Made by a program: the position numbers and the translations under genes. From an uncultured Halomicronema sp. (GTDB lineage: Bacteria; Cyanobacteriota; Cyanobacteriia; Phormidesmidales; Phormidesmidaceae), in the NCBI GenBank assembly GCA_937899725.1, contig CALCCA010000087.1:61979-85978 (forward strand): DNA of 24,000 bases, read 5' to 3'. Shown piece after piece: positions 1,028 to 24,000 of this stretch. The notes under the pieces are model-generated. The model did no database searches. It was not told the origin of the DNA and saw only the letters and a list, made by a program, of their open reading frames with translations. Positions within the stretch are counted from its first letter, which is position 1. Every line of letters starts with the position of its first letter.

Positions 1028-1411
1028 CTAGCCCCAGCGCTGCACTAATAAGCGAATGGAGCCATCTTCGCGCTGCTGCTGCTCAGCCACTTCAAACCCT
1101 TGCTGCGCCGTCTCCTGCAGAACGGTGTGGTAGGCGTAGCGCTGGGTGATGAGCTGCAAAAACCCATCCACCGACAGGGGCTGCTGCCAAAACTGTAAAT
1201 CTGACACCAGGGCATATTCCTGACCATTCCAGGCGAAGCCGATATCGTGCTGATTGGGCTGCGCGATCGCCAGATCGACGCTGCAGGTTTGGCCCTGATA
1301 GCCTCTGACCTGAGCAGGGCCAGGCTGCCATTCGATCTCTAAATCAGTCAAGGCTAATTGCAGGACTTCTAGATTGCGCAGGCGAGTTTTGATGTGGCTA
1401 AAGTGAGACAT
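1028..1411 (-). CDS. DUF1257 / Ycf35-like small soluble protein (127 aa)
   Basis: N-terminus MSHFSHIKTRLRNLEVLQLALTDL..., VRGYQGQT and DIGFAWNGQEYALVSDLQFWQQP match my memory of the cyanobacterial and plastid DUF1257 (Ycf35) family. It is the last ORF of the minus-strand operon. Confidence 0.7.
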   Translation of the reverse strand: MSHFSHIKTRLRNLEVLQLALTDLEIEWQPGPAQVRGYQGQTCSVDLAIAQPNQHDIGFAWNGQEYALVSDLQFWQQPLSVDGFLQLITQRYAYHTVLQETAQQGFEVAEQQQREDGSIRLLVQRWG

Positions 1412-1459
1412 GGTGAACCTTGCAAAACGACAGACTTTTGGGTGCCGCTCAGGAGGGCG

Positions 1460-1606
1460 CTATTCGCGGTCGATGGGATAGGTTCTATAAGAATAAATCC
1501 CAAATACTAGACAGCCAATGAGCAGCAGAATGAGTGCTGAAACAATGCCACTAGCCGTCGAGCTAAAGTCACCTTCTCCGTAAGCTAAATAGAAAATATT
1601 AGGCAT
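1460..1606 (-). CDS. Hypothetical 48-aa single-pass membrane protein between psbH2 and the DUF1257 gene
   Basis: ORF 1460..1672 trimmed to the ATG at 1606, which follows GGAGGTAAAA (strong SD). Product is MPNIFYLAYGEGDFSSTASGIVSALILLLIGCLVFGIYSYRTYPIDRE, with one clear hydrophobic helix. I recognise no family match. Confidence 0.4.
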   Translation of the reverse strand: MPNIFYLAYGEGDFSSTASGIVSALILLLIGCLVFGIYSYRTYPIDRE

Positions 1607-1658
1607 TTTTACCTCCATGAACAGATAAGGAATCGCTGAAGTAATTTTCAGACTGGGT

Positions 1659-1880
1659 TTAATCCAAGTCAAATACCGGCGTCACGTCAAAATCATTTAA
1701 CAGGATGGTGCCGTTGTAGAGCTGCAGAATAATTATGATAAAAACTAGCAGCGACACCAGGAGGACTCCCATGAGGGGGGCAGTGCCCCAGCCTGGGGTA
1801 ACCCGACCCGCCTCGGAATTGAAGGCTCTCAGCGCATATTGCAAAGGAGCTGTCTTTTTGGAAACGTATTTTTGCTGCAT
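1659..1880 (-). CDS. psbH2: Photosystem II reaction-centre protein H paralog (PsbH, far-red type by context)
   Basis: 73 aa. ...[41 protein letters not shown]... aligns with the canonical PsbH core NSEYGKV.PGWGTTPLM...FL.IILQIYNS. Confidence 0.9.
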
Positions 1881-2142
1881 GAATAATTTCTCGGTTCAGG
1901 AATGGCAATTGTGTAGTCGTTGACGATGTCGTTTAGGCAACGTTATTGGGGCAGTTTGTTAGAGAGTTGCTGCTTTTGCAAAGCTGATGATTTTAGAAGC
2001 TGTTGAAAGCGATTAAGGAAACTGTATCCGCATCACAGATCAGGCACAGAAACCATGTTTGCCGGGGCTTGGCAGTGCCAAACCCCGGCGGCGATTGGGG
2101 CGGCTTTTTTAAGCAACTGTTGGGTTGGCAAGTCCGGTAATC

Positions 2143-2167
2143 GCGACAGCATGTTGCAGGCTGTCGC
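2143..2167 (-). other. 8-bp stem-loop about 19 nt downstream of the psbB2 stop
   Basis: GCGACAGC (2143-2150) / GCTGTCGC (2160-2167) with a 9-nt loop. There is no T-run, so this is more likely an mRNA stability or processing hairpin than a terminator. Confidence 0.4.
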
Positions 2168-2185
2168 CATTCGGTAGAAACCCCA

Positions 2186-3724
2186 TCAAATCGTGGTCGT
2201 GGGCGTTTGCCGCGAGGTGGGATCGCCCACCTTACTGAAGTAGCCCCACTCCACCTGTTCTTCGTTCAGATCTGGATCGATGCCCGAGAAGACATCTTGG
2301 AACAGGGCTCGCAGCCCATGCCAGATATGACCAAAGAACCACACCAGGGCAAAGCAGGCGTGGAAAAAGGCGAAGAAGCCCCGATTGCTGGTGCGGATGG
2401 CACCGTCGGAGTTGTACACAGTGCGGTCAAACTCAAAGGGTTCGCCCAACTGCGCCTTACGCGCATATTCTTTGACTTTTTGCGGCTCGGTAAAGGTCTG
2501 CCCGTCGAGCTGACCGCCGAAAAAGCTGACGGTTACGCCCGTTTTTTCAAACCCGTATTTGGCCTCCGATCGCCGGAACGGAATATCGGCCCGGACGATG
2601 CCTTCGCGATCGGTTAGTATCACTGGAAAGTTTTCAAAGAAGTTGGGCATGCGCCTGACCTCGAGCTCCCGACCTTCCTGATCTTTAAAGACCGGATGCC
2701 CGAGCCAGCCAGTCGCGAGGCCATCGCCATCGACCATGCGACCGACGCGGAACAGGCCGCCTTTGGCCGGGCTATTGCCGACATAGTCGTAGAAGGCGAG
2801 CTTTTGTGGAATAGCCGACCAGGCAGTCTCTAGGTTTTGACCGGCCGCTTCGGCAGCATGGACTCGGCGATCGATTTCTTCGTGAAAGTAGCCCTTATCC
2901 CACTGATAGCGGGTTGGCCCCCACAGCTCAATCGGGTTAGTCGCCGTGCCGTACCACATGGTGCCGGCGGCGATAAAGCCCGCGCCAAAAAAGACCGCGA
3001 GGCCGCTGGCCAGAGCCCCTTCGATATTCCCCATACGGAGGGCTTTGTAGAGGTATTCGGGCGGCCGCACCAGGATATGGAACAGGCCGCCAATAATGGC
3101 CACAATGCCTGCCGCAATATGATGGGCTACCACCCCGCCAGGATTTTGCGGATTAAAGCCAGCGGCTCCCCATTCGGGGGCAACGCCCTGCATATGGCCC
3201 GTCAGGCCATAGGGATCAGAGACCCACATGCCGGGGCCAAAGACCCCAGTTAAGTGGAAGGCCCCAAAACCGAAACACAGCAGCCCGGCCAGTAATAGAT
3301 GAATGCCGAAGACTTTAGGCAAGTCGATGATGGGCTCATCGGTTTTGGGATCAAAGAACGTCGCGACATCCCAGTAAACCCAGTGCCAGCAGGCCGCTAG
3401 GAATTCTAGGCCAGAGAACACAATGTGGGCGATCGCGACGGTTTCAAACGTCCAAAAGCCAGGGTCGGTAAAGGTTTCGCCGGTGACGCTCCAACCCTGC
3501 CAAGAGTTGGTGACGCCGAGGCGAGCGACAAAGGGCATCAAAAAGCACCCTTGTCGCCACATGGGATTGAGAATCGGGTCAGTGGGATCAAAGCGCGCTA
3601 GCTCAAAGAGCAGCATGGAGCCAGCGAATCCGGCGCAGAGGGCATTGTGCATGAGATGCACTGCCAGCAATCGGCCCGGATCGTTGAGCACGGAGGTGTG
3701 AACGCGGTACCAAGGCAGTCCCAT
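2186..3724 (-). CDS. psbB2: Photosystem II CP47 chlorophyll-binding protein paralog (PsbB)
   Basis: ORF 2186..3838 trimmed to the ATG at 3724. This gives the canonical CP47 N-terminus [20 protein letters not shown] and is preceded by AAGGAG. The product is 512 aa, with CP47-like blocks throughout (e.g. [13 protein letters not shown] near the C-terminus). Confidence 0.95.
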
Positions 3725-3804
3725 TAGGGTCTTCTCCTTGTATAGGGTGGACAGTCGGAAGGGGTTCGGAGGGGCGCGGCATTCGTGGGAATGCCGATCC
3801 GGAG

Positions 3805-3870
3805 GGGCGAGGCATTCTCGATTAAATATCTGGGTCAAAACCAGTCAGTTACCGCGAGAATGCCTCGCCC
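3805..3870 (-). repeat. 66-nt hairpin element, copy 1 (16-bp stem, 34-nt conserved loop), just downstream of the psbC2 stop
   Basis: GGGCGAGGCATTCTCG (3805-3820) pairs perfectly with CGAGAATGCCTCGCCC (3855-3870). The loop attaaatatctgggtcaaaaccagtcagttaccg is nearly identical to the loop of the copy at 7352-7417. Confidence 0.75.
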
Positions 3871-3898
3871 GTACGGCACGGGGAGAATGCCTGTCGCT

Positions 3899-5347
3899 TT
3901 AGCGCAGGCTGGGGTCGATCGGTGGCATCGACAGCACCGGCTCGTTCTCGCGATCGAGGCCGGTTTCAAAGCCAGCAGCTGTGGCGCGGGCGCGACCCGC
4001 GTGCCAGAGGTGCCCGACGAGGAAAAAGAAGGCAAAGATAAAGTGAGCCGTGGCCAACCAAGTCCGGGGTGAAACAAAGTTAAAGGCATTTGTTTCAGTG
4101 GCTAGCCCCGCGACGGAGTTAATGGAACCCAGCGGCGCATGGGTCATGTACTCGGCAGCGCGGCGCAGCTGCCAGGGCTGAATATCGTGCTTGATTTTCT
4201 CGAGGTCGAGGCCGTTGGTGCCCCGGAGCGGCTCTAGCCAAGGGGCGCGAGCATCCCAAAAGCGCATCGTTTCACCGCCAAAGATGATTTCGCCGGTGGG
4301 CGATCGCTGCAGATATTTACCAAGCCCGGTCGGCCCCTGAGCTGAGGCCACATCAGCTCCCAACCCTTGATCGCGGGCTAAAAACACTAAAGATTGCGCC
4401 TGCGAAGCCTCAGGAATCGTGGGGCCATAGAACACGCTGGGATAAGCCGTATTGTTAAACCAAATAAAGGCGGTAGCAATAAAAGCTTGACCAGCGACGT
4501 TACCCAAACTCTGAGAGAGATAGGTCTCGCCCGTCCAGGGAAAGAGGTTATAGGTCCAGCGGAGGGGCGGCACGAGAATGTGCCAGATGCCACCAATGAC
4601 TAGCAGGCTGCCAATCCAAATGTGACCGCCAATGACATCCTCTAAGTTGTTGACGCTGACAATCCAACCGCTACCGCCGGTCGGCAGGCGCAGCAGATAC
4701 CCAAAAATGACGCGGGGGTCGAGAGTGGGGCTCGTAATCAGCCGCACGTCGCCGCCGCCCGGTGCCCAGGGGTCATACAGACCGCCCCAAAACATCGCTT
4801 TGCCGACAAACAGCAGGGCAAAGATCCCCAGCATGAGAATATGAAAGCCGAGAATTTGGGCCACTTTCGCCCGATCAGTCCAGTCAAACTCGAAAAAGCC
4901 TGAGAGCTTTTCGGGGCCTTGAATGGCGTGATAAATACCCCCCGCACCCAACACGGCAGAGCCAATCAGGTGAGCGACGCCAATGGCGAAAAAGGGAAAA
5001 ATGTCAGTGACGGCTCCCCCTTGACCGACCCCAAAGCCCAGGGTCGCAATGTGGGGCATGAGAATGCAGCCTTGCTCATACATCGGCTGCGACAGGTTGT
5101 AGTGGGAGACCTCAAACAGGAGCATGCCGCCGGCCCAAAAGGCAATCAGGCCCGCATGGGCGATATGCGCTCCGAGAAATCGTCCCGTCAACTCAGAAGT
5201 AATAAATCGGGCATTACCGGCCCACCAGGCAAAACCGCTGGACTCTTCGTCGTAGCCAGCGCTAGCGGGGGCAAAGATCGAGCCTTCCTCTACCAGGGGC
5301 TGACTCGACGTGGCTACGCTCGGTATCGTTTCGATGGGTATTTCCAT
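3899..5347 (-). CDS. psbC2: Photosystem II CP43 chlorophyll-binding protein paralog (PsbC)
   Basis: 482 aa. Contains [52 protein letters not shown] and C-terminal [11 protein letters not shown], all CP43 hallmarks. GGAGG lies 9 nt upstream of the ATG. Confidence 0.95.
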
Positions 5348-5437: not shown

Positions 5438-6496
5438 CTATTCACTAAAGCCCCGAGGTAGCACTTCTTCGGGGAAGACGAACTTCTTCGCAGGCTGATC
5501 CATCTCTGCCATCCAGGCCCGCACCCCTTCGTTGAGCAAGACATTCTTGGTATAGAAAGTCTCGTATTCGGGGTCTTGCGCGGCGCGGCGCTCCTGACTG
5601 ACAAAGTCATAGGCCCGCAAGTTGAACGACAAACCCACCATGCCAATGGCGCTCATCCACAGGCCAGTGACCGGCACAAACAGCATGAAGAAGTGCAGCC
5701 AGCGCTTGTTGGAAAAAGCGATGCCAAAAATCTGTGACCAAAAGCGGTTGGCGGTCACCATCGAATAGGTCTCTTCGGCCTGAGTGGTGGCGAAACCTTT
5801 GAACGTGTTTTTGCCCGTTGAGTCTTTGAACAGGGTGTTTTGGACGGTTGCCCCGTGAATGGCACAGAGCAGGGCTGCGCCTAACACCCCCGTTACCCCC
5901 ATCATGTGAAAGGGATTGAGCGTGTAGTTGTGAAACCCTTGGAAAAACAGTAAAAATCGGAAAATAGCGGTGACGCCAAAGCTAGGCGCAAAAAACCAGC
6001 TAGATTGCCCCAAGGGATACATCAGAAACGTGGCAACAAACACGGCGATGGGGGCCGAAAAGGCGATCGCGTTGTAAGGACGAATGCCGATCAGGCGAGC
6101 CACTTCGATTTGTCGCAGCATAAAGCCGATTAGGGCAAAGGCCCCGTGAAAGGCGGTGAAATTCCACAGGCCGCCGATTTGACACCAGCGCACAAAGTCA
6201 CCGTTGGCCTCCGGCCCCCATAGCAGTAAGAGCGAATGCCCCATGCTTTCGGCTGGGGTGGAGACGGCAACCGTCAAAAAGTTGCAGCCTTCGATATAAG
6301 AGCTGACTAAGCCATGGCTATACCAAGACGTCACAAAAGTGGTGCCGGTAAACCAGGCGCCGATCGCCATGTAAGCGCAAGGAAACAGCAGTAGCCCTGA
6401 CCAGCCCAGAAACACGAAGCGATCGCGCTTCAGCCAGTCATCGAGCTCAATTACCCAGCTCCGAGCTGGTTTTTGGGCTCCCATTGAAATTGTCAT
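5438..6496 (-). CDS. psbD3: Photosystem II D2 reaction-centre protein paralog (PsbD)
   Basis: 352 aa. Contains [61 protein letters not shown] and C-terminal FPEEVLPRG, colinear with D2 over its full length. Confidence 0.95.
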
Positions 6497-6575: not shown

Positions 6576-7109
6576 CTAAGCCACAGAATCGCTTTCGCCG
6601 GGGCCATCGTTCATGAAATAAGGCGTGCCGGGGAGCGCGAGCTCTTGAATGATTTCGTCAAAGTAAGGAATGATGGCCGCCGCATCAGTGGCGTCGAGTT
6701 GGGCGATCGCCTCCGCCTTCAGACAGCGCATGTACTGCAAGACGTTGGTTAGGGGAATGCCGACGTTGGTGTACAACTCCTTCATGCCCACGAGGCCAAT
6801 TTCTCGCAGGGGGCGATCGTCGCCCGCCAGCAGGCAATAGCTAATCAAGCGCACGTACCACCCCATATCGCGCTTAGCAGCGGCGGTTTTACGGCGATTG
6901 CCGCTATTGCTCGGCGTGCGGGGGCAAATGCGCCAAAATTGGCGAGTGCCTTGCTCCACGATGGTTTCGGCCTTTTGCTCTAGCGTTTTGGCGAGCCGTA
7001 CGCGCTCGGTGCCCGTTTTGCAAAAGGTGCGAATCGTGCGCAGCTCGCCGGGGGTGGGATAACGCTGCTCTTCGTCGGCGTTGAGAATGACCTGTTTCAC
7101 AATGCTCAT
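6576..7109 (-). CDS. apcD3: Allophycocyanin alpha-type subunit paralog (ApcD family) lacking the canonical bilin-binding Cys
   Basis: 177 aa. The globin-like phycobiliprotein fold motifs ICPRTPSNSG...KRDMGWYVRLISYCLLAGD are present. The position aligned with Cys81 (SCQRD / SCLRD in the two sister paralogs) reads AAKRD. The symbol comes from the known FaRLiP order apcA2-apcB2-apcD2-apcE2-apcD3. Confidence 0.82.
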   Translation of the reverse strand: MSIVKQVILNADEEQRYPTPGELRTIRTFCKTGTERVRLAKTLEQKAETIVEQGTRQFWRICPRTPSNSGNRRKTAAAKRDMGWYVRLISYCLLAGDDRPLREIGLVGMKELYTNVGIPLTNVLQYMRCLKAEAIAQLDATDAAAIIPYFDEIIQELALPGTPYFMNDGPGESDSVA

Positions 7110-7297
7110 GATTCTTCGGTTTCAGAAAGGGCGGTTTCAGCAACGGAGTAGATCCGCAGGCCCCCGAACCAGCCGATATGAATGCGGTAGTCCAAGGGGT
7201 TGCGGCTGCGGTACAAGGGCTGCAGCCGCGTCTGCGGGGTTTCGACGTCCGGCTCAATGACGGACAAAGGCGCGGTGGGATGGGAATGAATGTGCAT
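7106..7297 (-). CDS. Hypothetical 63-aa protein, translationally coupled (ATGA overlap) to apcD3
   Basis: The ORF fills the space between the hairpin repeat and apcD3. Its TGA (7108-7106) overlaps the apcD3 ATG (7109-7107). The C-terminal half ...YRIHIGWFGGLRIYSV... is only faintly reminiscent of the GG-x-I-x-x-V end of CpcD/ApcC small linkers. There is no clear SD. Confidence 0.35.
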   Translation of the reverse strand: MHIHSHPTAPLSVIEPDVETPQTRLQPLYRSRNPLDYRIHIGWFGGLRIYSVAETALSETEES

Positions 7298-7351
7298 GGT
7301 TTTGAGGAATAGGGGTCACGGCAGGGGCGAGGCCGGCGCGATTATGCGGAG

Positions 7352-7417
7352 GGGCGAGGCAGGCGCGATTCAATATTTGGGTCAAAACTAATCAGTTACT
7401 TCGCGCCTGCCTCGCCC
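7352..7417 (-). repeat. 66-nt hairpin element, copy 2, just downstream of the apcE2 stop
   Basis: GGGCGAGGCAGGCGCG (7352-7367) pairs perfectly with CGCGCCTGCCTCGCCC (7402-7417). The loop is attcaatatttgggtcaaaactaatcagttactt. A partial tandem copy of the left arm lies at about 7324-7342. Confidence 0.75.
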
Positions 7418-7449
7418 GTACGGGAGTGGGGAATCGCAAGGCCGCGCGT

Positions 7450-9822
7450 TTAGGCGGGATTGGTCGCAGTTTCTGGCTCCGGCGTGGTCGCAGCCGTCTC
7501 GCCGTTGTTGACAGCGGTTGGCGGGTCGGGGGTGACGGCGGCGGGTGGGGGCGGTGGCGGCGCTTGAACGGCCACCGCAGTGGTTGCAGCGACCGGCTCT
7601 GGGCTGGCTGCTGCCGACCCGGCACTGTGGTCGCGCCCGGTGTGGTGATTCGCAGTGTGACCCTGAGCCATTGCAGTTTTGGCGTAGGTTTGCATCCATT
7701 CCCCCGCGATCGCTGGATTTTCTCGAGGTTTGAACCAGCCGCTAGGCCCTTGGGGCGATCGCTGAGCATAGCCCTGCGGCGTCAGGTAGCGCTCATAGGG
7801 CACGATCATTTCACCAAAGACCGCCAGGTATTCGGCACTGTCGATCAGCTCATCGACCAAGGCATAAAAGCCTTGGCGGGCACAGAGGTCGTAGTACCGG
7901 GCCATTTCTCGGCGATCGCGGGTCGGGCGCCCCAGCAAGCGCCGGTGAATATATTCGATCGCCTTGGTGATGTAGAGCGTCTCCCAAGCCAGCTGGCGGA
8001 AGGGGCGCGATTTGGCCAACTGCCGCACAAATTCGCGCAGGGTGATATTGCCTGCCTTTAGTTGGGTCTCAGCCGTTTGCTGCCGCTGGCCAGCCCACAC
8101 CGCTCGCCCAAACACCTGGCGATAGGTCGCCTGAATCACCGCCTCAGGGGAGTGGTGGGTCAGACTAAAGCTGGTTTGGCGGGGTGGCTCACCGCCCGCC
8201 TTGCCGTTCAGGCCATTCGGGGAAACGACCGCTTCCCACTGCAGCCGCTGCTGTTCCATCGCACCGGGGGCGCGGCCAAGGTGGGCGGCATGGCGTTCGA
8301 CCAAGCCGTTGCCCACGCCGTTGCTGATCAAAATCCGGCGGCTGTCTTCGCTAAAGTGAGCGGGCTGCGGCTGCGGATCGCGCGTTTCCTGCGGGAAGAT
8401 GGCTCCAAACTGAATCTCCAGCGGATCGTTGCCCGCCCCGTAGGGATGCTGATTGGGCAGCGGTTGCTGATAGCCGCCAAAGGTCGTGACAAACTGCGGC
8501 ACCTTGCGCACCGGCGCACTGTATTTCAACAGATCGAGTTGGGGACCCCAGTTGCGGCATTCCTGCGCCTCTCGCCCCAAACCGCGCAGATAGGGCACCG
8601 TTTCTTCGCCAAAGTAGTCGGCATATTCTGGCGAGTCGATAAAGGCATCCACCAAGGCCGACAACCCGTGATCAGAGATGACGTCAAAGTACGTCTGAAA
8701 CTCTTCTAGGCAGCTCAGCCCGCGACCGAGAAAGTGACGGCAGGCCAGCTCAATGCTGCGGCTGATGCTGTAGGGCTCATAGAAAAGTTGCCGATACAGG
8801 CGCGATTTACCCAACTGCCGAATGAACTCTTTCATCGTCCCCAGGTCGCTTTTGACCTGAGAGACGGGCGCTGCCAGCAGGGTGCCGTGGGTCTGGATGA
8901 CATCGCGCTCAAACACTTGGCGGCAGGCCGCTCGCACCACATCATCTTTTTCGATGTCGGGCAAATCGGCTTTCATCACCCAGTGGGGCTGCAGACTGGC
9001 ACTATCGCGGTAGCTTTGGGGTAAGGGCAACCCCGCGTGATGTTTAGAAATCCCCAGTCGCAACTGCGGATTGGGTTTCTCGACCTCATAGTCATCAATC
9101 AAGACATCAAAGTAGCGCCCCACTAGCGCGGCGGCTTGTCCCTTTTTGGGAAAATAGGTCAGCGCTTTCCACTGCATTTCTCGCAGGGCGACGATGGTGG
9201 CCAGGGTGACATCTTCTGGAATCACGCCCCGCAGGCCGCGCGTATTGACGCTAATGATGCTGGTATCCCCCGCCACGATCGCATAGGTGATGTAGCGCAA
9301 AAACCAGCTCAGGTCGCGCAGCGATCGCTTCATCCGCACCGGGCCGTAGCGGCCAATATCGATCGTGCGAAAGCGGCTGGGTGCCGCAGGTCTACCGCCT
9401 GCAATCAGCCCTTGAAACCATTCCAGCAGCGGATTGGACTCGTCGATTAGCCGCGGGCGATCGCGATTTTGGGTTCGCGCTTTTTGCTGCCGGGTCACCG
9501 CCGAGAGATAGTCTTCAGCAATGAAGTAATCAGAGCCCGGTAGTCCCAACGACTCCTCGGGCGGCTCTAGATAGGCCATCGAGTTGCCGCCCACAAAGAT
9601 GCGGTTGGCCCCCGCTGCCACGATGCGCTCAGCGTGCTGGGTCAGGGTTTGGGCAATCGCGAGTCGCTTCATCCCAGCGCCAAAAAAAGCTAAGAGTTCT
9701 TGGCCTTCACCGCGGCTTAAATAGCGATCGCGCTGCATCGCTTCAGTGATGACGGCGGTTGGCACCGTGTGATACTGCTGGGGATGAATCACTGGACTGC
9801 CCCCATTAATCCGATCAGTCAT
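7450..9822 (-). CDS. apcE2: Phycobilisome core-membrane linker paralog (ApcE) with two REP linker domains and a Cys-free bilin domain
   Basis: ORF 7450..9906 trimmed to the ATG at 9822 (MTDRINGGSPVIHPQQYHTVP, the ApcE-like N-terminus). The product is 790 aa. The phycobiliprotein-like domain contains RYGPVRMKRSLRDLSWFLRYITYAIVAGD. Two linker repeats are present: ...ACRQVFERD...EYADYFGEETVPYLR and ...ATYRQVFGRA...EYLAVFGEMIVPYERY. Confidence 0.9.
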   Translation of the reverse strand: MTDRINGGSPVIHPQQYHTVPTAVITEAMQRDRYLSRGEGQELLAFFGAGMKRLAIAQTLTQHAERIVAAGANRIFVGGNSMAYLEPPEESLGLPGSDYFIAEDYLSAVTRQQKARTQNRDRPRLIDESNPLLEWFQGLIAGGRPAAPSRFRTIDIGRYGPVRMKRSLRDLSWFLRYITYAIVAGDTSIISVNTRGLRGVIPEDVTLATIVALREMQWKALTYFPKKGQAAALVGRYFDVLIDDYEVEKPNPQLRLGISKHHAGLPLPQSYRDSASLQPHWVMKADLPDIEKDDVVRAACRQVFERDVIQTHGTLLAAPVSQVKSDLGTMKEFIRQLGKSRLYRQLFYEPYSISRSIELACRHFLGRGLSCLEEFQTYFDVISDHGLSALVDAFIDSPEYADYFGEETVPYLRGLGREAQECRNWGPQLDLLKYSAPVRKVPQFVTTFGGYQQPLPNQHPYGAGNDPLEIQFGAIFPQETRDPQPQPAHFSEDSRRILISNGVGNGLVERHAAHLGRAPGAMEQQRLQWEAVVSPNGLNGKAGGEPPRQTSFSLTHHSPEAVIQATYRQVFGRAVWAGQRQQTAETQLKAGNITLREFVRQLAKSRPFRQLAWETLYITKAIEYIHRRLLGRPTRDRREMARYYDLCARQGFYALVDELIDSAEYLAVFGEMIVPYERYLTPQGYAQRSPQGPSGWFKPRENPAIAGEWMQTYAKTAMAQGHTANHHTGRDHSAGSAAASPEPVAATTAVAVQAPPPPPPAAVTPDPPTAVNNGETAATTPEPETATNPA

Positions 9823-9934: not shown

Positions 9935-10414
9935 TTAGCGTCTGAGCCCTTCCATCAAGTAGTCAAAATAGGGCGCGACTTCTGCCGCATCATCAATGCT
10001 CAACAGGCTGAGGGCCACTTCTTTGAGACAGCCCATGCATTCCGCCACATTACTGAGAGGAATTTCGAGAGAGGTGTACATCTCCTTGACCCCGCGCACC
10101 CCACTGGCCTGCAGCGGGTCAATGTCGCCCACCACGACGGCATAGGAAATCAGGCGCAGAAACCAGCCCTGATCACGCAGGCACGAAGCCTGAAACCGGG
10201 GGTTATCGCTATTGCTGGGAGTCAGGGGACAGCGTTGCCAAAATCGCTGACTGCCTTGTTCCACAATCAGTTGGACGTTGCTAGTCAACACGGAGGCAAT
10301 GCGGAGGCGCTGTTGTCCGGCGTCAAAGAAATGACTGATCGCCTCCAGTTCGCCCCGACTGAGATATCGCGCTTCGCGATCGGCGTTGGCGATCGCTTGG
10401 GTAATAATGCTCAT
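9935..10414 (-). CDS. apcD2: Allophycocyanin alpha-type subunit paralog (ApcD family, far-red type)
   Basis: 159 aa. Contains MSIITQAIANADREARYLSRGELEAI..., RCPLTPSNSD...ASCLRDQGWFLRLISYAVVVGD and a C-terminal APYFDYL. The symbol is assigned from gene order. Confidence 0.82.
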   Translation of the reverse strand: MSIITQAIANADREARYLSRGELEAISHFFDAGQQRLRIASVLTSNVQLIVEQGSQRFWQRCPLTPSNSDNPRFQASCLRDQGWFLRLISYAVVVGDIDPLQASGVRGVKEMYTSLEIPLSNVAECMGCLKEVALSLLSIDDAAEVAPYFDYLMEGLRR

Positions 10415-14706: not shown

Positions 14707-15219
14707 TTATCGTTTGGGTTTTCCCCCAGCCCACTGGTCACCGACGATTCTCGGCTGCACTAAAATATGGCCCGCGATCGCGGTCAAATCAGATTGAGTC
14801 AGGTCACGCATTTTAGGAAAGAGATCCGTCCGCTGCGTCGATGGATGACTTTCTAAAATAGGCTGCAACCCATCGTAGGTTGTGGGGTTTTCCAAATAAT
14901 TAACGATGCTTTCTATCGTATTGCGAGGCGGGGTCGCAACCGCCAATGTTTCAGACGATAAATCAACGCTGGGATTCGTTTTTGTGACGCCGTCTAAATG
15001 ACATTGAGCACAGCTACCATTAAATTTACGCTGCCCGGTCAGCAGTTGTTTGGTCGTCAGGGTCATCTGATCGCCTGATGCATTTAAGGGTAGCGTTCGA
15101 GTCGCTTTATCAATTTCAGCCGCGTTAGCATTAGGCACCCAGGCGATTGCCGAAATCAACAATGCACAGGTTGGCAAAGCAACATATCTAAGTAATTTTC
15201 TTTTGAGATTAAAAAACAT
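14707..15219 (-). CDS. psbV2: Cytochrome c-550 (PsbV) paralog
   Basis: 170 aa. The signal peptide ends ...VPNANA/AE. The heme motif is CAQCH. Also present are LDGVTKTNPSVDL, LAVATPPRN, NPTTYDG, the distal-ligand His region ILESHPS, LFPKMRDLTQSDLTAIAGHIL and a GDQWAGGK tail, all colinear with PsbV. Confidence 0.88.
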   Translation of the reverse strand: MFFNLKRKLLRYVALPTCALLISAIAWVPNANAAEIDKATRTLPLNASGDQMTLTTKQLLTGQRKFNGSCAQCHLDGVTKTNPSVDLSSETLAVATPPRNTIESIVNYLENPTTYDGLQPILESHPSTQRTDLFPKMRDLTQSDLTAIAGHILVQPRIVGDQWAGGKPKR

Positions 15220-16080
15220 TAATTTCTAGCTCCAAAAATTTAGCTAATATCTTAAAAGTATCACAGCTTTTATTTGAGATTCATTAAAATAGTATTTCTT
15301 GAAAAGAATCTAGAAGAAATCGTTTTAGCAAATCAATAACTGGATTGTTGGATTTTTTGATTGACTATTTTCTGTTCAAATAAAAGGCTGCCATGGTCGA
15401 TGTTGTTCAGATTCTCCTTTGGCTGACCTGTCAAAGTCTCGCCAGCTTAATGACGGCATGACGGTATGAAGTGGACTGGTAATGAGGGCAGCTGCGTTTT
15501 TGAGCTGACCGACTGGCAGGAAGTCTCCTCGGTATAAGGACTCTCCAAAAAACCGATCAAGGATCTGCTTGAGCGCGATCGCCCGCTGCTGCAATCAGGT
15601 CTGCAGGCCTCTCAAAACCCCTCTAAATCAAAGGTCTATGGTCTGAGCGCTTGACCACAGGCAGCGAGATTTTGAGGGCTGAATTGCGCCGGTAAACGTG
15701 AGGTCATGGACGACTTAGCCCGGTGTGAAGCATGAGAGAAAGGGGTCGAGCTGCCGAGTGAATTGCTTGAAACGCTCATCGGTCAATGACCCTGGCTGTA
15801 ACTTTTTCTGAAGTGCTGATTCATCTTCACTAGTTTTTTATTTTTTTTGCTTACCTTGCTTTACTAATCGCGATCAGTCGATTCACCAATTCATTCTCTG
15901 CCTTCCCGATGATCTTGAGTAGCTTCAAGAAAAGTATGGCCGTCCTCTCCTCATAGAGGTTGGTCTAGGGAACTTACCTGCTGACTTTAAAGCGGGTGAG
16001 TTGAGAATATAAAACTTGCAGTTTTCTGTTTGAAGTGGCCCAAACTAGTCACGGCAAACAGCTCTGTTTTACTGCAAATT

Positions 16081-16208: not shown

Positions 16209-17462
16209 ATGACACAGTTTGGTAGAGCGATCGCCCTCGATCGTCCTGACCAAATCGCAGGCGTCTCACCCTCTAGGAAACCCATAAGTGACGTGACTAT
16301 TGCACCTCCCATTCATTCTGACGATGCCAAAATTGCGCGCCCCATTAATGTGTGGGAGCGCTTTTGCCGCTGGGTTACCAGCACTGACAATCGCATTTAT
16401 GTCGGCTGGTTTGGCATCTTGATGATTCCGACCTTATCCACTGCGGCCATCGTCTTTTTGCTGGCCTTTGTGGCGGCCCCCCCGGTGGATATTGACGGCA
16501 CTGGCGGGCTCATCGCGGGGTCGTTATTCAGCGGCAATAATCTGATTACCGCTGCCGTCGTGCCCACTTCACCCGCTGTGGGGCTGCACTTTTATCCCCT
16601 TTGGGAAGCCGCTTCGATGCAGGAGTGGCTGGTCAATGGCGGCCCCTATCAACTCATCGTGCTGCACTTCTTGATTGGCATCATTGCCTATCAAGATCGG
16701 GAATGGGAACTCAGTTACCGACTGGGAATGCGGCCCTGGGTGTCGCTCGCCTTTACCGCCCCAGTGGCGGCCGCCGTGTCGGTGTTGCTGATTTACCCCA
16801 TTGGCCAAGGCGGCTTTGCTGCGGGCATGCCCTTGGGCATTTCGGGCACGTTTACGTTCATGCTGCAGTTCCAGGCTGATCACAACATCCTGGCTAATCC
16901 GTTTCACCAAATCGGCGTGATTGGGGTCTTTGGCGGGTCGTTTCTCTGTGCCGTGCATGGCTCATTGGTTACGTCGGCGCTGATTCGCCATCGCCCTACC
17001 CCGGCGGCGGCCCAGCGCCGCTGGCATGACAACCCCCACGGGGCCTATAGCCTCAGGCATCTGCAAATCAATCAACAAAAATTACTCTGGCGCGGGGCGA
17101 GTTTTAAGTCAGCGCGATCGCTGCATTTTTTCCTGGCGGCCTTTCCGGTGGCGGGCATCTGGTCGGCGGCGATGGGCATTGATATGGCCGCCTTCGGGTT
17201 TGATCAGTTTGCGAGTCAAGCGGCCGGGGGTGGCCTCCAAAAGGCGGTGGTGCCGACTTGGGCCGACATTGTGACCCAGGCCAATCTGGGCATGCATGTG
17301 CTGTCAGAGACTGAGCAGTCCACCTTTCCCATCTTTTTGGGCGAAGCCGCCACGCCTGAGGCTGCCCGTCTGGGGCTGGCGGTAGACCCCGATGCCCCGG
17401 CGCGGGCGCTCACGGGCCCACAGCTGTCCGGCGCGATCGCCCCAGCCATTCCCACTGTCTGA
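16209..17462 (+). CDS. chlF: Super-rogue D1 paralog with chlorophyll f synthase hallmarks (ChlF / PsbA4)
   Basis: D1 fold is clear ([58 protein letters not shown]). The OEC ligand positions are changed: D170->A (GQGGFAAG), E189->D (QADHN), H332->S, D342->F, A344->G ([20 protein letters not shown]). [10 protein letters not shown] carries Gln-Asp where D1 has Met127-Gly128. The QB/DE-loop is unrecognisable. Start is set at ATG 16209 (AGGAG 8 nt upstream), not the GTG at 16035. Confidence 0.88.
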
Positions 17463-17567: not shown

Positions 17568-19925
17568 ATGACTACCAGTCCTCCGAAGCAGAGGCAACCG
17601 GTGCGGGTCACCGTTGATGAAAACCCCGTGTCCACCTCTTTTGAGAAGTGGGCCAAACCGGGACATTTCGACCGCACCCTGGCCAGAGGCCCCAAAACCA
17701 CCACCTGGATTTGGGATCTGCATGCCGATGCCCATGATTTTGATACCCACACGGGTGATCTCGAAGATATTTCTCGCAAAATCTTCTCAGCTCACTTTGG
17801 GCATCTGGCCATTATCTTCATCTGGCTCAGCGGCATGTATTTTCATGGCGCTCGGTTTTCTAACTTTTCCGCTTGGATGGCCGATCCGATTAACCTCAAG
17901 CCCAGTGCTCAAGTCGTCTGGCCCCTCGTCGGCCAAGAGATTCTGAACGCTGATCTGGGGGGCGGCTTCCACGGCATTCAAATCACCTCGGGCCTCTTCC
18001 AAATGTGGCGTGGCCAGGGCTTTACCCATGAGTTTCAGCTCTTTTGGACGGCGATGGGGGCGCTGGTGATGGCTGCTGTCATGCTGTTTGCGGGCTGGTT
18101 TCACTACCATGTGCGGGCGCCCAAGCTGGAATGGTTCCGCAATTGGGAATCGATGATGAACCACCACCTGGCCGGCCTACTCGGTCTGGGCAGCTTAGGC
18201 TGGGCGGGGCATTTGATTCACGTGGCAGTGCCGACCAATCGGTTGATGGACGCGGGGGTCGCCCCGAACGATGTGCCGTTGCCCCATGAGTTCATTCTCA
18301 ATAAGAGCTTGATGATGGAGCTGTTCCCCAGCTTTGCCCAAGGCGTCAAGCCGTTTTTCACGTTTAACTGGTCGGCCTACACCGATTTCCTCACCTTTAA
18401 GGGTGGGCTCAATCCGGTGACGGGCGGCCTGTGGATGACGGATATTGCGCACCATCACGTGGCGATCGCCGTGCTCTTTATCGTGGCCGGCCACTTCTAT
18501 CGCACTAACTGGGGCATTGGCCACACTTTCCGAGAGCTGCTGGATGATGCCAGAACGCCCAAACTGTTTCCTCTGTTTAGTTTTCTGGGGCCAGTGGGGC
18601 ACCGGGGGCTCGAAAAAATCTTTGAGACCTCTTGGCACGCCAATTTGGCGATTCACCTGGTGCAGTTTGGCACCGCCAGCCTGCTGGTGGCCCATCACAT
18701 GTATGCGATGCCGCCCTACCCGTATCTGGCCACTGACTATGCCACGGTGACCTCGCTCTTTACCCACCATGTGTGGATTGCGGGCTTCTGTATTGTGGGC
18801 GGGGCGGCCCATGCGGCCATCTTCTTAGTGCGGGACTACAATCCCGCCGACCACGTCAATAATGTGTTGGATCGGGTGCTGCGTCACCGCGACACCATTA
18901 TTTCTCACCTGGTGTGGGTCTGCCAGTTCCTCGGTTTCCACAGTTTCGCCATGTACTGTCACAACGACACCATGCGCGCCTTTGGTCGCCCGCAGGACAT
19001 GTTCTCCGATACGGGGATTCAGCTGCAGCCGGTGTTTGCCCAGTGGGTGCAACACATCCACACGATGGCGATCAACAATCCAGCGGCGCAGGCCGCTCAG
19101 CCCTTGGGCGATGTGTTTGGCGGTCTCCGCAATATTGATTTGGTCGGGCTGGGCACCACCGTGCCACAGGTGGCGCAACCGATCAGCCATGCCTTTGGCG
19201 GCGGGGTCGTTGCCGTTGGCGGCAAGGTAGCGATGATGCCCATCCATCTGGGCACGGCAGATTTCTTAATTCACCACATTCACGCCTTCACCATTCACGT
19301 AACGGTGCTGGTGCTGCTGAAGGGTGTGCTGTTTGCCCGCAGTTCGCGACTGATTCCCGATAAGGGTGAGCTGGGCTTCCGGTTCCCTTGCGATGGCCCC
19401 GGTCGCGGCGGCACCTGCCAGGTCTCTGCTTGGGACCACGTCTTTCTCGGGCTGTTTTGGATGTACAACTGCCTGTCGATTGTGATTTTCCACTTCTTTT
19501 GGAAGATGCAGTCGGATGTGTGGGGTACGGTGAATGCCGACGGCACGATATCCCATATCACGGCGGGCAATTTTGCCCAATCATCCATTACCAACAATGG
19601 CTGGCTGCGCGACTTTCTCTGGGCGCAGGCGTCGCAGGTGATTGGCTCCTATGGGTCGGCGCTATCGGCCTACGGCCTAATTTTCCTGGCGGGGCACTTC
19701 GTCTTTGGTTTCAGTTTGATGTTCTTGTTCAGCGGCCGCGGCTACTGGCAAGAGCTGATTGAGTCCATCGTGTGGGCGCATAACAAACTGAAAATCACCA
19801 CGGCGATTCAACCCCGTGCGCTGAGCATCACGCAAGGACGCGCGGTGGGGGCGGCCCATTATCTATTGGGCGGCATTGTCACCACCTGGGCCTTTTTCTT
19901 AGCCCGCATGGCGGCGCTGGGGTAG
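17568..19925 (+). CDS. psaA2: Photosystem I P700 apoprotein A1 paralog (PsaA)
   Basis: 785 aa with TAGGAGG upstream. Contains [35 protein letters not shown], the FX loop [19 protein letters not shown] and a C-terminal [18 protein letters not shown]. Confidence 0.95.
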
Positions 19926-20055: not shown

Positions 20056-22287
20056 ATGGCGACAAAATTTCCGAAATTTAGTCAGGATTTGCAGCGAGAC
20101 CCGACCACTCGTCGAGTCTTTTATGCGATCGCCACGGCTCATGATTTTGAAAGCCACGATGGGATGACGGAGGAGAATCTGTATCAGCGGATTTTTGCCT
20201 CCCACTTTGGTCATCTCGCCATTATCTTTTTATGGATATCGGGCATTTTGTTTCATGTGGCCTGGCAAGGCAACTTCGAACAGTGGATTCAAGATCCGCT
20301 GAACACTAAACCGATCGCCCATGCCATTTGGGATGCCCAGTTTGGCCCCGCCGCGATCGACGCTTACACCCAAGCTGGCGCTCGCAACCCGGTCGATATT
20401 TGCTACTCCGGGGTGTATCACTGGTGGTACACCATCGGCATGCGCACCAACACCGACTTGTTTGTCGGCTCGCTATTTTTGCTGCTGCTGGCAGGCGTCA
20501 TGCTCTATGCCGGGTGGCTACACCTACAGCCCCGGTTTCGGCCCAGCTTGGCCTGGTTTAAGAATGCCGAATCGCGGCTCAACCATCACCTGGCCGGTCT
20601 GTTTGGCGTCAGTTCCCTGGCTTGGACGGGTCACTTAGTGCATGTGGCCATTCCCGAATCACGGGGACAGCATGTCGGGTGGGATAACTTCCTCTCGCTG
20701 CCGCCGCATCCGGCGGGACTAGGGCCATTCTTCACTGGCAACTGGGGCGTCTATGCCCAAAATCCCGATACGGCTGAGCATGTGTTTAACACCAGCCAGG
20801 GTGCGGGCACGGCCATGCTCACCTTTTTGGGGGGCTTCCATCCCCAAACGGAATCGCTGTGGCTGACGGATATGGCCCATCACCATCTGGCGATCGCGGT
20901 TCTCTTTATCTTTGCGGGCCACATGTACCGCACCAACTTTGGCATCGGTCACAGTATTAAAGAAATGACCGAATCCCTGCAGGGGCCAGGGTGGAAAGGG
21001 TTCTTCATCGCGCCGGATACTGGGCGCGGTCACCAGGGCATTTACGACACCTACAACAACTCCCTGCACTTTCAGTTGGGCTGGCATTTAGCCGCGTTGG
21101 GGGTGGTCTGCTCCCTGGTGGCGCAGCACATGTATGCCATGCCGCCCTATGCCTTTATGGCCCGCGATTACACCACCATGTCGGCGCTTTATACTCATCA
21201 CCAGTACATTGCGGGCTTCCTGATGGTGGGGGCCTTTGCCCACGGCGCGATCTTCCTAGTTCGTGATTATGACCCCCAGGCGAATGTCGATAATGTGCTG
21301 GCCCGCGTGTTGGATCACAAGGAAGCGATCATCTCGCACCTGAGCTGGGTGTCGCTCTTCCTCGGCTTTCATACCCTCGGCCTCTACGTGCACAACGACT
21401 GTGAGGTGGCCTTTGGCGCGGCTGAGAAACAGATCTTGGTAGAGCCGGTGTTTGCCCAATGGATTCAAGCTTTCCATGGCAAAGCGCTCTACGGCATCAG
21501 TTCGCTGCTATCCAACCCGGAGAGTGTGGCGACGACGGCCTGGCCGAATTACGGCAACGTTTGGTTACCGGGTTGGCTAGAGGGTATCAATAGCGGCGCG
21601 AACTCGCTGTTTTTGACCATCGGACCGGGAGACTTTTTGGTGCACCACGCGATCGCCCTCGGGCTCCACGTCACCACCCTCGTTTTGGTGAAAGGGGCGC
21701 TGGATGCGCGGGGGTCGAAGCTGATGCCCGATAAAAAAGACTTCGGCTACAGCTTCCCCTGTGATGGGCCGGGTCGCGGCGGCACCTGCGACATCTCGGC
21801 TTGGGATTCCGTTTATCTCGGCATGTTCTGGATGTTGAACTCCCTCGGGTGGATTACCTTCTACTGGCACTGGAAACATCTGTCAGTTTGGAGCGGTAAT
21901 GTCGCTCAGTTCAACGAAAGTTCGACCTACCTGATGGGCTGGTTCCGCGACTATCTGTGGCTGAATTCGGCTCAGCTGATCAACGGCTACAGCCCGACGG
22001 GCACAAACAATCTGGCCGTCTGGGCCTGGATGTTCCTCTTTGGTCACTTGGTCTGGGCGATCAGCTTCATGTTCTTGATTACCTGGCGGGGCTACTGGCA
22101 AGAACTGATCGAAACGCTGATGTGGGCTCACGAAAATACGCCGCTGTCCTTTGGCTATCCCAAAGACAAGCCCGTGGCCCTCTCTATTGTGCAGGCCCGC
22201 CTCGTGGGGCTCACCCATTTCACGGTCGGCTATATTGCCACCTACGGCGCTTTCCTGATTGCGTCTACGGCTAGCCGCTTTCCGTGA
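20056..22287 (+). CDS. psaB2: Photosystem I P700 apoprotein A2 paralog (PsaB)
   Basis: 743 aa. Contains [34 protein letters not shown], the FX loop [18 protein letters not shown] and a C-terminal [18 protein letters not shown]. Confidence 0.95.
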
Positions 22288-22447: not shown

Positions 22448-22481
22448 GCGCTGAACGCACGCTAATTCAGAGGGCGACACG

Positions 22482-23051
22482 ATGACTGATACCTCGCAAC
22501 CGGCTTGGGCTGATGCCTACAGTCAAGAAGATTTTATTCAGCCCTATCAGGGCAATCCCTGGTTAGGCAATTTGGCCACTCCGATCAACAGCTCGGGCTG
22601 GGTCAAAGCCTACATCAACAACCTGCCAGCTTACCGTCCGGGTCTTACCCCGTTTTTACGCGGTCTCGAAATTGGCATGGCCCACGGCTATTTTTTGGTC
22701 GGGCCAGAAGTGGTAGTGGGGCCGCTGCGCGAGACGGCCCATGGGGCTAATCTCAGCGGTCTAATTACCGCCGTTTACATCACCGTCTCGGCCTGCCTGG
22801 GCATTTCGATCTTTGCCCTTGCCACCTTTCAAGGGGCTCCCCGAGGCGCTTACAACCTGCATTCCCAAGACCGGCTGCGGCCGCTCCGGCAAAAAGAAGA
22901 CTGGTTTCAGCTCTGCGGCGGCATCTTACTCGGTTCGATGGGCGGGGCCATCTTTGCCTATGTACTGTTGGAAAACTTCAGTGATATCGACGCCAGCTTA
23001 CGGGGCGCGGTGAATGTGAGTCAGGCGATCGTTAATGGAATTTTGGGGTGA
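22482..23051 (+). CDS. psaL2: Photosystem I subunit XI paralog (PsaL)
   Basis: 189 aa. Contains PYQGNPWLGNLATPINSSGWVKAYINNLPAYRPGLTPFLRGLEIGMAHGYFLVGP and a C-terminal ...AYVLLENF, colinear with PsaL. Confidence 0.9.
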   Translation: MTDTSQPAWADAYSQEDFIQPYQGNPWLGNLATPINSSGWVKAYINNLPAYRPGLTPFLRGLEIGMAHGYFLVGPEVVVGPLRETAHGANLSGLITAVYITVSACLGISIFALATFQGAPRGAYNLHSQDRLRPLRQKEDWFQLCGGILLGSMGGAIFAYVLLENFSDIDASLRGAVNVSQAIVNGILG

Positions 23052-23323
23052 TCAGGCAAGGGACTGGTCAGAGTTCTTGGTTCTTTTGGTTATTCGTTAT
23101 GGGTTCTTGGTTTTGATTTCGGAGTTCGGAGTTCACCCTCTGGTCTTGAGCACGGCCTGCGATCGCAAGCCGCCATCAGGTTGGGACAGCTTGGACTTCT
23201 GGAAGGCCCGTACAGTCAGCGTTTTAATTCCGAATTCCAAATTCTGCTACACCTCGACGTTAGCGAATAATCAGTCACCAGTAACGCATAACGAATCACA
23301 AACTTAATTCAAGGAGAAACATC

Positions 23324-23557
23324 ATGGCTGATATGACTCAACTGACCGGCGCCTATGCTGCGTCATGGTTGCCCTGGCTGATGATTCCGCTAATTTTTTA
23401 TATTCTGCCCTTCCCTGTATTTGCGATCGTTTTTCTTTGGATTGAACGCGAAGGCAACGGTGAGGCGGCGATGGGACAAGATGCGACTAGCTCATCATCC
23501 GGATTGTTAGCGGCCACACCCGGTGACATGGGCGCCGACCCCACCTCATCTGCCTAA
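23324..23557 (+). CDS. psaI2: Photosystem I subunit VIII paralog (PsaI) with a long C-terminal extension
   Basis: AAGGAG lies 7 nt upstream. GAYAASWLPWLMIPLIFYILPFPVFAIVFLWIEREG matches the PsaI core (..YAAS.LPW...P.......LF.YIE). The ORF is 77 aa, whereas I remember PsaI as about 38-40 aa. Confidence 0.8.
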   Translation: MADMTQLTGAYAASWLPWLMIPLIFYILPFPVFAIVFLWIEREGNGEAAMGQDATSSSSGLLAATPGDMGADPTSSA

Positions 23558-23652
23558 AAGATGAAAGTTCTTAGGAATGAGAGAGTTTTAAGTTCTTAGT
23601 TTTGAATTAAACCCCGTCGACTTTGAAAGCCCTGGTTTTGGCTGGCCGAGCC

Positions 23653-23801
23653 CACCTCACCTGACCTCTCCTGAGTAAGGAGAGGCACCGGAGCGTTCTT
23701 AAACCTCTCCTGACTGTTGGCGAAGCCTGCCCGGAGGGCTTAGGAGAGGTGCCGCAGGCGGTGAGGTTCGACCGCATGTCAAAATTCCAGTTCTCAATCT
23801 A
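23653..23801 (-). repeat. MITE-like nested-palindrome element, copy B (inverted, between psaI2 and psaF2)
   Basis: The reverse complement reads tagattgagaactggaattttgacatgcggtcgAACCTCACCgcctgcggcaCCTCTCCT...AGGAGAGGtttaagaac...CCTCTCCTTactcAGGAGAGGtcaGGTGAGGTg. It is colinear with 14094-14219, with a larger first loop of about 30 nt. Confidence 0.8.
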
Positions 23802-23961
23802 GATGAGCTTTAGCCGTTCAACTCAAAACTCAAAATTCAGAACTCAATTAATTCTGATTCCTTAACGTTCAGGTTTTTGAGTTGCTCATTCAATTCCGCC
23901 TTCCGCCTGGAAACTTTAGAACGCCCTAAATCCTTTTTAATTAGTAACAGGAGATCAGAGA

Positions 23962-24000
23962 ATGCGAAAGCTTTTTGCCATTGTGTTGGTGGTGTTTTTC
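23962..24000 (+). CDS. psaF2: Start of photosystem I subunit III paralog (PsaF), truncated by the window end
   Basis: AGGAGA lies 7 nt upstream of the ATG. MRKLFAIVLVVFF resembles PsaF signal peptides (MRRLFALILV...), and the position after psaI2 fits the FaRLiP order psaA2-B2-L2-I2-F2. Only 13 codons are visible. Confidence 0.5.
   Translation, partial: MRKLFAIVLVVFF

Follow-up and report, generated by a model that had tools for sequence, protein, structure and literature searches.

Far-red light photoacclimation (FaRLiP) extends oxygenic photosynthesis to 700-800 nm and is studied with a view to the engineering of crops and algae and to the ecology of the early Earth. The canonical FaRLiP clusters are reportedly those described by Gan and co-workers in 2014, from Leptolyngbya sp. 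JSC-1, Chlorogloeopsis fritschii PCC 9212/6912 and Fischerella thermalis PCC 7521. In the Nodosilineales, designated group VI by Antonaru et al. 2024 (10.1101/2024.05.15.594131), chlF is followed by the psa genes and then the rfp genes, while psbO2 lies upstream of the apc genes in reversed orientation; the accessory genes of this group are psbF2 between psbO2 and psbV2, a reversed psbV2 before chlF, and psbH2' after psbH2. The same authors described a motif that precedes chlF, spans about 61 bp and consists of a 5' and a 3' block with a gap between them; 'long' copies of it stand ahead of apc in Nodosilineales, and 'short' copies ahead of psbO. The present analysis concerns a stretch of 24,000 nucleotides from an uncultured Halomicronema sp. 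(contig CALCCA010000087.1, positions 61,979 to 85,978), here called the window, which an earlier note (the original prediction) had read as a FaRLiP-type gene cluster.

The window almost certainly covers the central 23 kb of a FaRLiP cluster that is complete, has the Nodosilineales ('group VI') architecture and belongs to a Halomicronema-like filamentous cyanobacterium. The FaRLiP interpretation was borne out by the far-red paralogue scores, by the sequence signatures that Antonaru et al. 2024 list in their Table S5, by the residues diagnostic of ChlF, by the flanking psbA3 and rfpBAC genes and by the promoter motif. Gene families were called with NCBIfam and Pfam on the open reading frames (ORFs) of the window, and the E-values spanned 7.6e-10 (psaI, the weakest) to 0, so chance matching is no issue for the gene identities. 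Gene content, paralogue type, diagnostic residues, motif copies and synteny were observed directly. The minus strand carries a single string, apcD5-apcB2-apcD2-apcE2-(orf63)-apcD3-psbD3-psbC2-psbB2-psbH2-psbH2'-(DUF1257), whereas the plus strand carries psbO2-psbF2 and chlF-psaA2-psaB2-psaL2-psaI2-psaF2, with psbV2 standing alone on the minus strand between them (Table 1). The 18 photosynthesis genes originally counted are therefore 17 complete genes plus a psaF represented by its first 13 codons, and the first gene of the range said to begin at 1028 encodes a DUF1257 protein, not a recognised photosynthesis subunit.

This gene map reproduces the published group VI order, orientations and accessory genes. 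The likeness to group VI members such as Halomicronema hongdechloris C2206 and Synechococcus sp. PCC 7335 extends over gene order, the divergence of psbO2 from apc, and motif placement, and the best structural matches of the window were the far-red complexes of H. hongdechloris and Synechococcus PCC 7335. The proposal that extra members made this instance unusual did not hold, as the positions and orientations of psbO2, psbF2, psbV2 and psbH2' are the published norm for Nodosilineales. Relative to published group VI clusters, the window does have a DUF1257 paralogue, orf63, an expanded apcD5-psbO2 spacer, and hairpin repeats of 87 nt and 72 nt. The order and orientation of the window recur in about 15 independent assemblies from Nodosilinea, Vasconcelosia, Leptolyngbya cf. 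ectocarpi, 'Oscillatoria' CS-180 and metagenome-assembled genomes (MAGs); the comparison loci sharing its layout were L017, L018, L021-L026, L029, L031, L033, L034 and L051. Two MAGs of Antonaru et al. 2024 ('pac_S1C3486_1' and 'pac_S6C1340_1') are among the related loci and the contig prefix of the window neighbours theirs, so the cluster has probably already been catalogued among Pacific metagenome MAGs. Both the cluster type and the gene arrangement are published, and the window is thus a known system in a known architectural variant. It adds one well-preserved example of an early-branching Nodosilineales-type cluster; its value is that of a reference instance, which opens no new question alone.

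The canonical strains (L042, L046) share with the window the core paralogues, the order apcD5-apcB2-apcD2-apcE2-apcD3-psbD3-psbC2-psbB2, a ChlF bearing the QD residue pair, the chlF motif and adjacent rfp genes. Unlike in the window, however, chlF and psbA3 lie directly upstream of apc in these strains, and psaA2B2 lies on the other side in the opposite orientation; psbO2, psbF2 and psbV2 were not seen within 10 kb, and protein identities to the window were 57-84%.

The flanks of the cluster were read on near-identical contig sequence. JBHJIQ010000013.1, a 159-kb contig of GCA_050043345.1 retrieved by exact-protein look-up, matched the window at 99.97% identity across the 11.5 kb that were compared. 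Downstream of the window (locus L005), psaF2 and psaJ2 are followed by rfpB-rfpA-rfpC, which encode a 644-aa protein with receiver, winged-helix and receiver domains, an 853-aa GAF-PHY-PAS-kinase and a 127-aa CheY-type protein, respectively; rfp orthologues also adjoin chlF in PCC 6912 and PCC 7521. The psaF2 stub at the window end, MRKLFAIVLVVFF, is the start of a 160-aa PsaF gene in L005. On the other side (locus L011), a psbA gene for a 359-aa product lies about 120 bp before the window start and was identified as psbA3 because it combines the far-red signature 'FHYIPAL' with the full set of Mn ligands. With the window and these flanks together, all 19 core FaRLiP genes are accounted for.

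Promoter motifs were searched with a position weight matrix (PWM) derived from the motifs that precede chlF in 20 other genomes, at a threshold of 12 (the maximum on shuffled sequence being 7.7). The only matches in the window were at 15825-15858 (+), with a score of 33.6, and 12423-12456 (-), with a score of 40.4. The former lies 385 nt before chlF, has its 5' block TGTAACTTTTTCTGAAG at 15797-15813, and aligns with the chlF upstream regions of at least 20 genomes, including PCC 6912 and PCC 7521; the motif before apcD5 forms an inverted repeat with it. At this threshold, the scan returned no motif before psbO2. A looser anchor search located a short divergent copy at 12507 facing psbO2, which is conserved in L018, L021, L023, L025, L029, L031 and L033, and a weaker copy stands directly upstream of psbA3 on L011. 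This distribution supports the presence of at least three putatively far-red-controlled transcription units in the window, to which RfpB would presumably bind.

In the mechanism established for the family, which by analogy may also operate in the lineage of the window, light above 700 nm would cause the knotless phytochrome kinase RfpA to signal via RfpC to the DNA-binding regulator RfpB, and RfpB would then activate promoters with the T-rich motif, which in the window stand before chlF, apcD5 and psbO2. ChlF, a D1 paralogue without the Mn cluster, would photo-oxidise chlorophyll a to chlorophyll f, and the paralogous core subunits of photosystem I (PSI) and photosystem II (PSII) would bind chlorophylls f and d. 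ApcD5, ApcB2, ApcD2, ApcE2 and ApcD3 would form bicylindrical cores absorbing at about 710 nm, with the bilin of ApcE2 and ApcD3 held non-covalently. For the lineage of the window, we infer far-red induction, pigment synthesis and the operon boundaries.

The apcD5-psbO2 spacer (11967-13184) is AT-rich and measures 1218 bp, compared with about 260-320 bp in several relatives. It contains a 46-codon ORF (12892-13032) resembling a decayed copy of the PsbO2 signal-peptide region, similar ORFs being present in L017, L018 and L023, and a perfect 20-bp hairpin followed by a T-run at 13095-13144, just before psbO2. This hairpin could uncouple psbO2 from the short motif at 12507.

It was also considered that the cluster might be decaying or non-functional, for example through lost regulation of some members, or that it might be a chimera of MAG assembly. 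The source is metagenomic, the apcD5-psbO2 spacer has expanded to 1.2 kb with an apparent decayed psbO2 5' fragment and a terminator-like hairpin before psbO2, and several hairpin repeats have been inserted in intergenic spacers. However, all genes have full-length open frames that match their orthologues from one end to the other, and the motifs at the promoters are likewise intact. Independent assemblies, obtained from several samples, repeat the gene order and encode proteins that are 97-100% identical. Decay or chimerism was thus regarded as very unlikely, and the reading as an intact FaRLiP cluster was retained.

Each product was scored in bits against the chains of all solved structures in the PDB. 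Such scores can tell the paralogues apart, since structures are available for far-red as well as visible-light complexes, once from the same species. According to the respective papers, 6KMX, 7S3D, 7LX0/6PNJ, 8UHE, 8EQM, 9EYS and 9I1R are far-red complexes, while 6KMW is the visible-light PSI of Halomicronema hongdechloris, whose far-red PSI is 6KMX, so that both PSI forms occur in that species. The far-red status of 7SA3 was not confirmed in the paper searched, its PsbB and PsbD sequences being identical to those of 8EQM. PsaA2 of the window scored 1687 bits with 6KMX, 1552 with 7S3D, 1547 with 9EYS and 1505 with 6PNJ, against at most 1374 with white-light chains (1329 with 6KMW), and it aligned in a single piece with the far-red chains but in two pieces with most white-light chains. 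PsaB2 scored 1628 with 6KMX and 1607 with 7S3D, the remaining chains giving at most 1483. For PsbB2, 7SA3/8EQM gave 1048 bits versus at most 889 for white-light CP47 (9T5T, the identity of which was not confirmed, gave 1011), and for PsbD3 the same pair gave 729 bits, with other D2 chains at most 678. Table S5 of Antonaru et al. 2024 lists FaRLiP motifs for ApcE2, PsbA4, PsbA3, PsbB2, PsbC2, PsbH2, PsaA2, PsaB2 and PsaI2. All eight signatures applicable to genes of the window were present, and the PsbA3 motif was found in the psbA just outside it. The PsbB2 motif was an exact match, the PsaA2 motif, the PsaB2 motif TPLSFGY and the PsaI2 signature MIPLIFYILPF were present, and the PsbC2 segment fitted the far-red consensus including its deletion. 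PsaL2, whose 180 bits lie under every equivalog cut-off, is a divergent PsaL, and its synteny is kept in all group VI loci.

The divergent D1 homologue was assigned to ChlF. Compared with Thermosynechococcus D1, it has Q127 and D128 in place of M and G, carries the substitutions D170A, E189D, H332S, H337S, D342F and A344G, and retains E333, Y161, H190, H198, H215 and H272. Its earlier description as a D1 without Mn ligands is therefore right for D170, E189, H332, H337, D342 and A344 but too sweeping, as E333 is kept. The protein scored 460 bits against a psbA cut-off of 596 and contains the published ChlF signature (LAFT). A survey took in about 105 D1-like sequences, drawn from 80 loci that had been fetched with the window D1. 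In it, the QD pair was restricted to homologues that lack H332, H337 and D342 and lie inside FaRLiP clusters, including those of Chlorogloeopsis fritschii PCC 6912 and Fischerella thermalis PCC 7521, whereas all other surveyed D1s showed the standard or the 'rogue' ligand pattern. Counted over 94 related loci, QD was likewise limited to cluster-borne D1 homologues with lost Mn-cluster ligands. The window ChlF was 59-61% identical to the cluster-borne QD homologues of PCC 6912 and PCC 7521, and its closest sequences, at 98% identity, came from an 'uncultured Halomicronema sp.' MAG and a marine cyanobacterial MAG. No solved ChlF was found among the PDB structures, every D1 chain giving about 405-443 bits, and ChlF membership was accordingly based on the diagnostic residues and the context. 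Rogue or sentinel D1 proteins (rD1), which occur in diazotrophic and other cyanobacteria, are likewise divergent D1 paralogues with altered Mn-cluster ligands. However, the rD1s, which were among the more distant matches, show the pattern LGYE[DN]HHH[AS]H, keep H332 and H337, lack QD and occur outside FaRLiP clusters, and the protein encoded in the window is of the ChlF type.

These comparisons bear directly on whether the locus could instead be a supercluster of housekeeping genes, that is, the organism's sole copies linked by chance and serving visible-light photosynthesis. All products do belong to ordinary PSI, PSII and allophycocyanin families, and psbB, psbC, psbD, psaA, psaB, psbV and psbF pass their equivalog cut-offs. 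Against this, the products compared were closer to far-red than to white-light structures, the published far-red signatures were all present, the D1 homologue is unable to ligate the Mn cluster, and rfpBAC is adjacent on the near-identical contig. Furthermore, the cluster is without psbE, psbI-M, psbT, psbU, psaC, psaD, psaE, apcA, apcC and apcF, so that no complete complexes could be made from it alone. These missing subunits, together with the two PSI forms of H. hongdechloris, lend indirect support to a putative white-light gene set elsewhere in the genome. A housekeeping role is extremely improbable, and the genes are regarded here as the far-red set.

The antenna genes gave equally specific matches. 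The five apc genes corresponded one to one to the ApcD5, ApcB2, ApcD2, ApcE2 and ApcD3 chains of 8UHE, with large gaps to other paralogues (for ApcD3, 282 bits versus at most 190). The match of ApcE2 to its 8UHE counterpart ran over the full length (981 bits), and its VIPEDV signature was present. At the bilin-binding Cys position, ApcE2 has Ser ('KRSLRDL') and ApcD3 has Ala, as in the Synechococcus 7335 counterparts, the bilins of which are non-covalent according to the 8UHE paper. The prediction of a Cys-free ApcE with two REP domains was accurate as regards the two PF00427 domains, but it is the chromophore Cys alone that has been lost, five other Cys being kept; ApcD3, a second subunit without the bilin Cys, had been overlooked. 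Three divergent alpha subunits score below the ApcA cut-off, and this would also be expected of a low-light photoacclimation (LoLiP) locus (apcD4-apcB3-isiX), which likewise encodes far-red-absorbing allophycocyanin paralogues (ApcD4-ApcB3) but leaves the photosystems unremodelled and has no chlF, photosystem paralogues or ApcE2. Such a locus has next to no probability here, since the alpha subunits gave 251-323 bits with ApcD5, ApcD2 and ApcD3 of 8UHE versus 157-174 with ApcD4 of 8DDY (confirmed in its paper as the ApcD4 structure), ApcB2 gave 308 bits with 8UHE versus 220 with 8DDY_B, and the window contains chlF and the psa and psb paralogues, which are not part of LoLiP.

Several points weigh against the assignment to a complete, far-red-controlled FaRLiP cluster. 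The lineage is represented solely by a MAG and metagenome contigs, and for rfpABC, psbA3, psaJ2 and most of psaF2, which the window does not contain, the near-identical contig was the only source. The assignment of psbC2, psaL2 and psaI2 was made from signatures and synteny and not from paralogue comparison. The score gaps of PsaB2 and PsbD3 to white-light forms are modest, and the far-red Fischerella PsaB (6PNJ) matched PsaB2 no better than did Thermosynechococcus PsaB. Finally, the short motif stands about 0.9 kb away from psbO2, with a strong hairpin in between, which makes far-red control of psbO2 less certain here.

Table 1. Features of the window, in order of position, with the basis for each call.
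Feature	Position	Strand	Basis
DUF1257 (Ycf35-family) paralogue	1028-1411	-	Pfam PF06868, 2.9e-42
psbH2' (48 aa, one transmembrane helix)	1460-1606	-	intact ORF; size and position match Table S8
psbH2	1659-1880	-	NCBIfam PsbH, 2.8e-26; far-red 'AP.QY' as APLQY
psbB2 (far-red CP47)	2186-3724	-	TIGR03039, 911 bits
psbC2 (far-red CP43)	3899-5347	-	TIGR01153, 723 bits; signature and synteny
psbD3 (far-red D2)	5438-6496	-	TIGR01152, 702 bits
apcD3 (no bilin-binding Cys)	6576-7109	-	8UHE 'ApcD3', 282 bits
orf63 (63 codons)	7106-7297	-	conserved ORF between apcE2 and apcD3
apcE2	7450-9822	-	two PF00427 REP domains; 8UHE 'ApcE2', 981 bits
apcD2	9935-10414	-	8UHE 'ApcD2', 251 bits
apcB2	10798-11283	-	8UHE 'ApcB2', 308 bits
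apcD5	11490-11966	-	8UHE 'ApcD5', 323 bits
T-rich FaRLiP promoter motif ('long') before apcD5	12423-12456	-	PWM 40.4
short FaRLiP motif copy toward psbO2	12507-12540	+	anchor match CTTCACCAGTTCTTTAG
psbO2	13185-14057	+	Pfam MSP, 2.6e-96; Table S8 position and orientation
psbF2 (cytochrome b559 beta subunit)	14409-14543	+	TIGR01333, 1.3e-24
palindromic hairpin, psbF2/psbV2	14646-14692	.	inverted repeat, 23-nt arms
psbV2 (cytochrome c550 paralogue)	14707-15219	-	TIGR03045, 201.7 bits, above cut-off
'chlF motif', about 61 bp	15797-15858	+	5' block TGTAACTTTTTCTGAAG, gap, 3' block CTTCACTAGTTTTTTATTTTTTTTGCTTACC
chlF (psbA4, 'super-rogue D1', chlorophyll f synthase)	16209-17462	+	diagnostic residues
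psaA2	17568-19925	+	far-red PSI chains best
psaB2	20056-22287	+	far-red PSI chains best
psaL2	22482-23051	+	NCBIfam PsaL, 180 bits; synteny
psaI2 (77 aa, C-terminal extension)	23324-23557	+	NCBIfam PsaI, 7.6e-10, residues 8-43
psaF2, first 13 codons, cut by window end	23962-24000	+	MRKLFAIVLVVFF

Beyond the established architecture, the FaRLiP-linked DUF1257/Ycf35 paralogue, the conserved 63-codon ORF between apcE2 and apcD3 and several hairpin repeats look to be undescribed, and the leads offered by the window are the cluster-linked Ycf35 paralogue, the conserved small ORF among the apc genes and the hairpin repeats in the operon spacers. Five distinct FaRLiP contigs (L095-L099) have a DUF1257 gene in the same place, following psbH2' and facing psbA3, at 68-91% identity. 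In a neighbour-joining tree the FaRLiP-linked copies grouped as one clade, separate from about 65 homologues whose contexts are unrelated to FaRLiP. A literature search linking DUF1257/Ycf35 to far-red light returned nothing relevant. The small ORF was conserved in 19 sequences (the window and 18 related group VI loci), and its stop codon overlaps the ATG of apcD3. The encoded sequence varies at the N-terminus and has the core Y[RH]I.IGWFGG..[IV]Y; a search against Pfam assigned it to no family. Across 14 codons, its variable sites fell 7/3/13 by codon position, the third position dominating, a pattern that suggests a real small protein. Read by eye, the core resembles the N-terminal segment 'NRLYIGWFGV' of D1. 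Neither the DUF1257 gene nor orf63 figures among the published accessory genes in the available portion of Antonaru et al. 2024. It is possible, if rather doubtful, that in the Halomicronema-like sublineage the far-red apc-psb operon carries two undescribed accessory genes, namely the DUF1257 paralogue and orf63, with a protein of 45-65 residues. If the two are co-transcribed under far-red light, their products would be candidates for factors that assist the assembly or docking of far-red PSII or of the bicylindrical antenna core.

Several of the remaining genes required adjustment of their boundaries or showed individual peculiarities. The true start of psbB2 is internal to the ORF at 2186-3838, and that of psbO2 is probably at 13209 or later, the gene call in L005 being of 282 aa. 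The N-terminus of PsbO2, ...FLGFLTAC/SSSP, is lipobox-like by inspection of the sequence, which suggests a lipid-anchored rather than a soluble extrinsic protein. The psbH2' product was identical at 43 of 48 positions (90%) to the products of 48-aa genes called in L001 and L013; the gene is intact, yet it was left uncalled by the gene caller on the near-identical L011 and had been missed in the earlier note. PsaI2 has 77 aa compared with the 38 positions of the NCBIfam PsaI model, and its tail is acidic and Ser-rich. In group V and group VI relatives the tail is present but highly variable, with total lengths of 61-130 aa.

Candidate features that were rejected included a match to the antisense RNA IsrR at 4696-4882 (+), with an Rfam score of 116.9 bits, opposite psbC2. 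The same match was obtained in psbC2 of every other FaRLiP locus tested, and it most likely reflects the coding homology of isiA and psbC and not an antisense RNA. The small ORFs at 23035-23307, 12690-12887, 15376-15594, 15636-15779, 8-223 and 864-1010 were conserved in near-identical contigs only and were considered non-genes, and the ORF at 1735-1923 (+) is conserved merely because it lies opposite psbH2.

Repeated elements were found in several spacers. Two 87-nt elements, at 3797-3883 in the psbC2-psbB2 spacer and at 7344-7430 in the apcE2-orf63 spacer, are 82% identical and form a long GC-rich hairpin, with a partial third arm at 7323-7343; they could serve in the processing or stability of RNA, or be small mobile repeats. 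An inverted pair of 72 nt, 86% complementary, occupies 14082-14153 in the psbO2-psbF2 spacer and 23742-23813 in the psaI2-psaF2 spacer. The 1-kb non-coding stretch between DUF1257 and psbA3, the latter outside the window, contains a 57-nt direct repeat (539-595 and 836-892, 86% identical) with a terminator-like hairpin, AAAAAAGCCCTC...GAGGGCT. A tandem-like direct repeat of 45 nt (10561-10605 and 10623-10667, 71% identical) is located in the apcB2-apcD2 spacer. The palindrome between the convergent psbF2 and psbV2, with arms 96% complementary around a 1-nt loop, is likely a bidirectional terminator. A tRNA scan of the window found no tRNA genes. The HIP1 octamer GCGATCGC occurs 31 times in the window versus about 0.7 expected, which fits a cyanobacterial origin.

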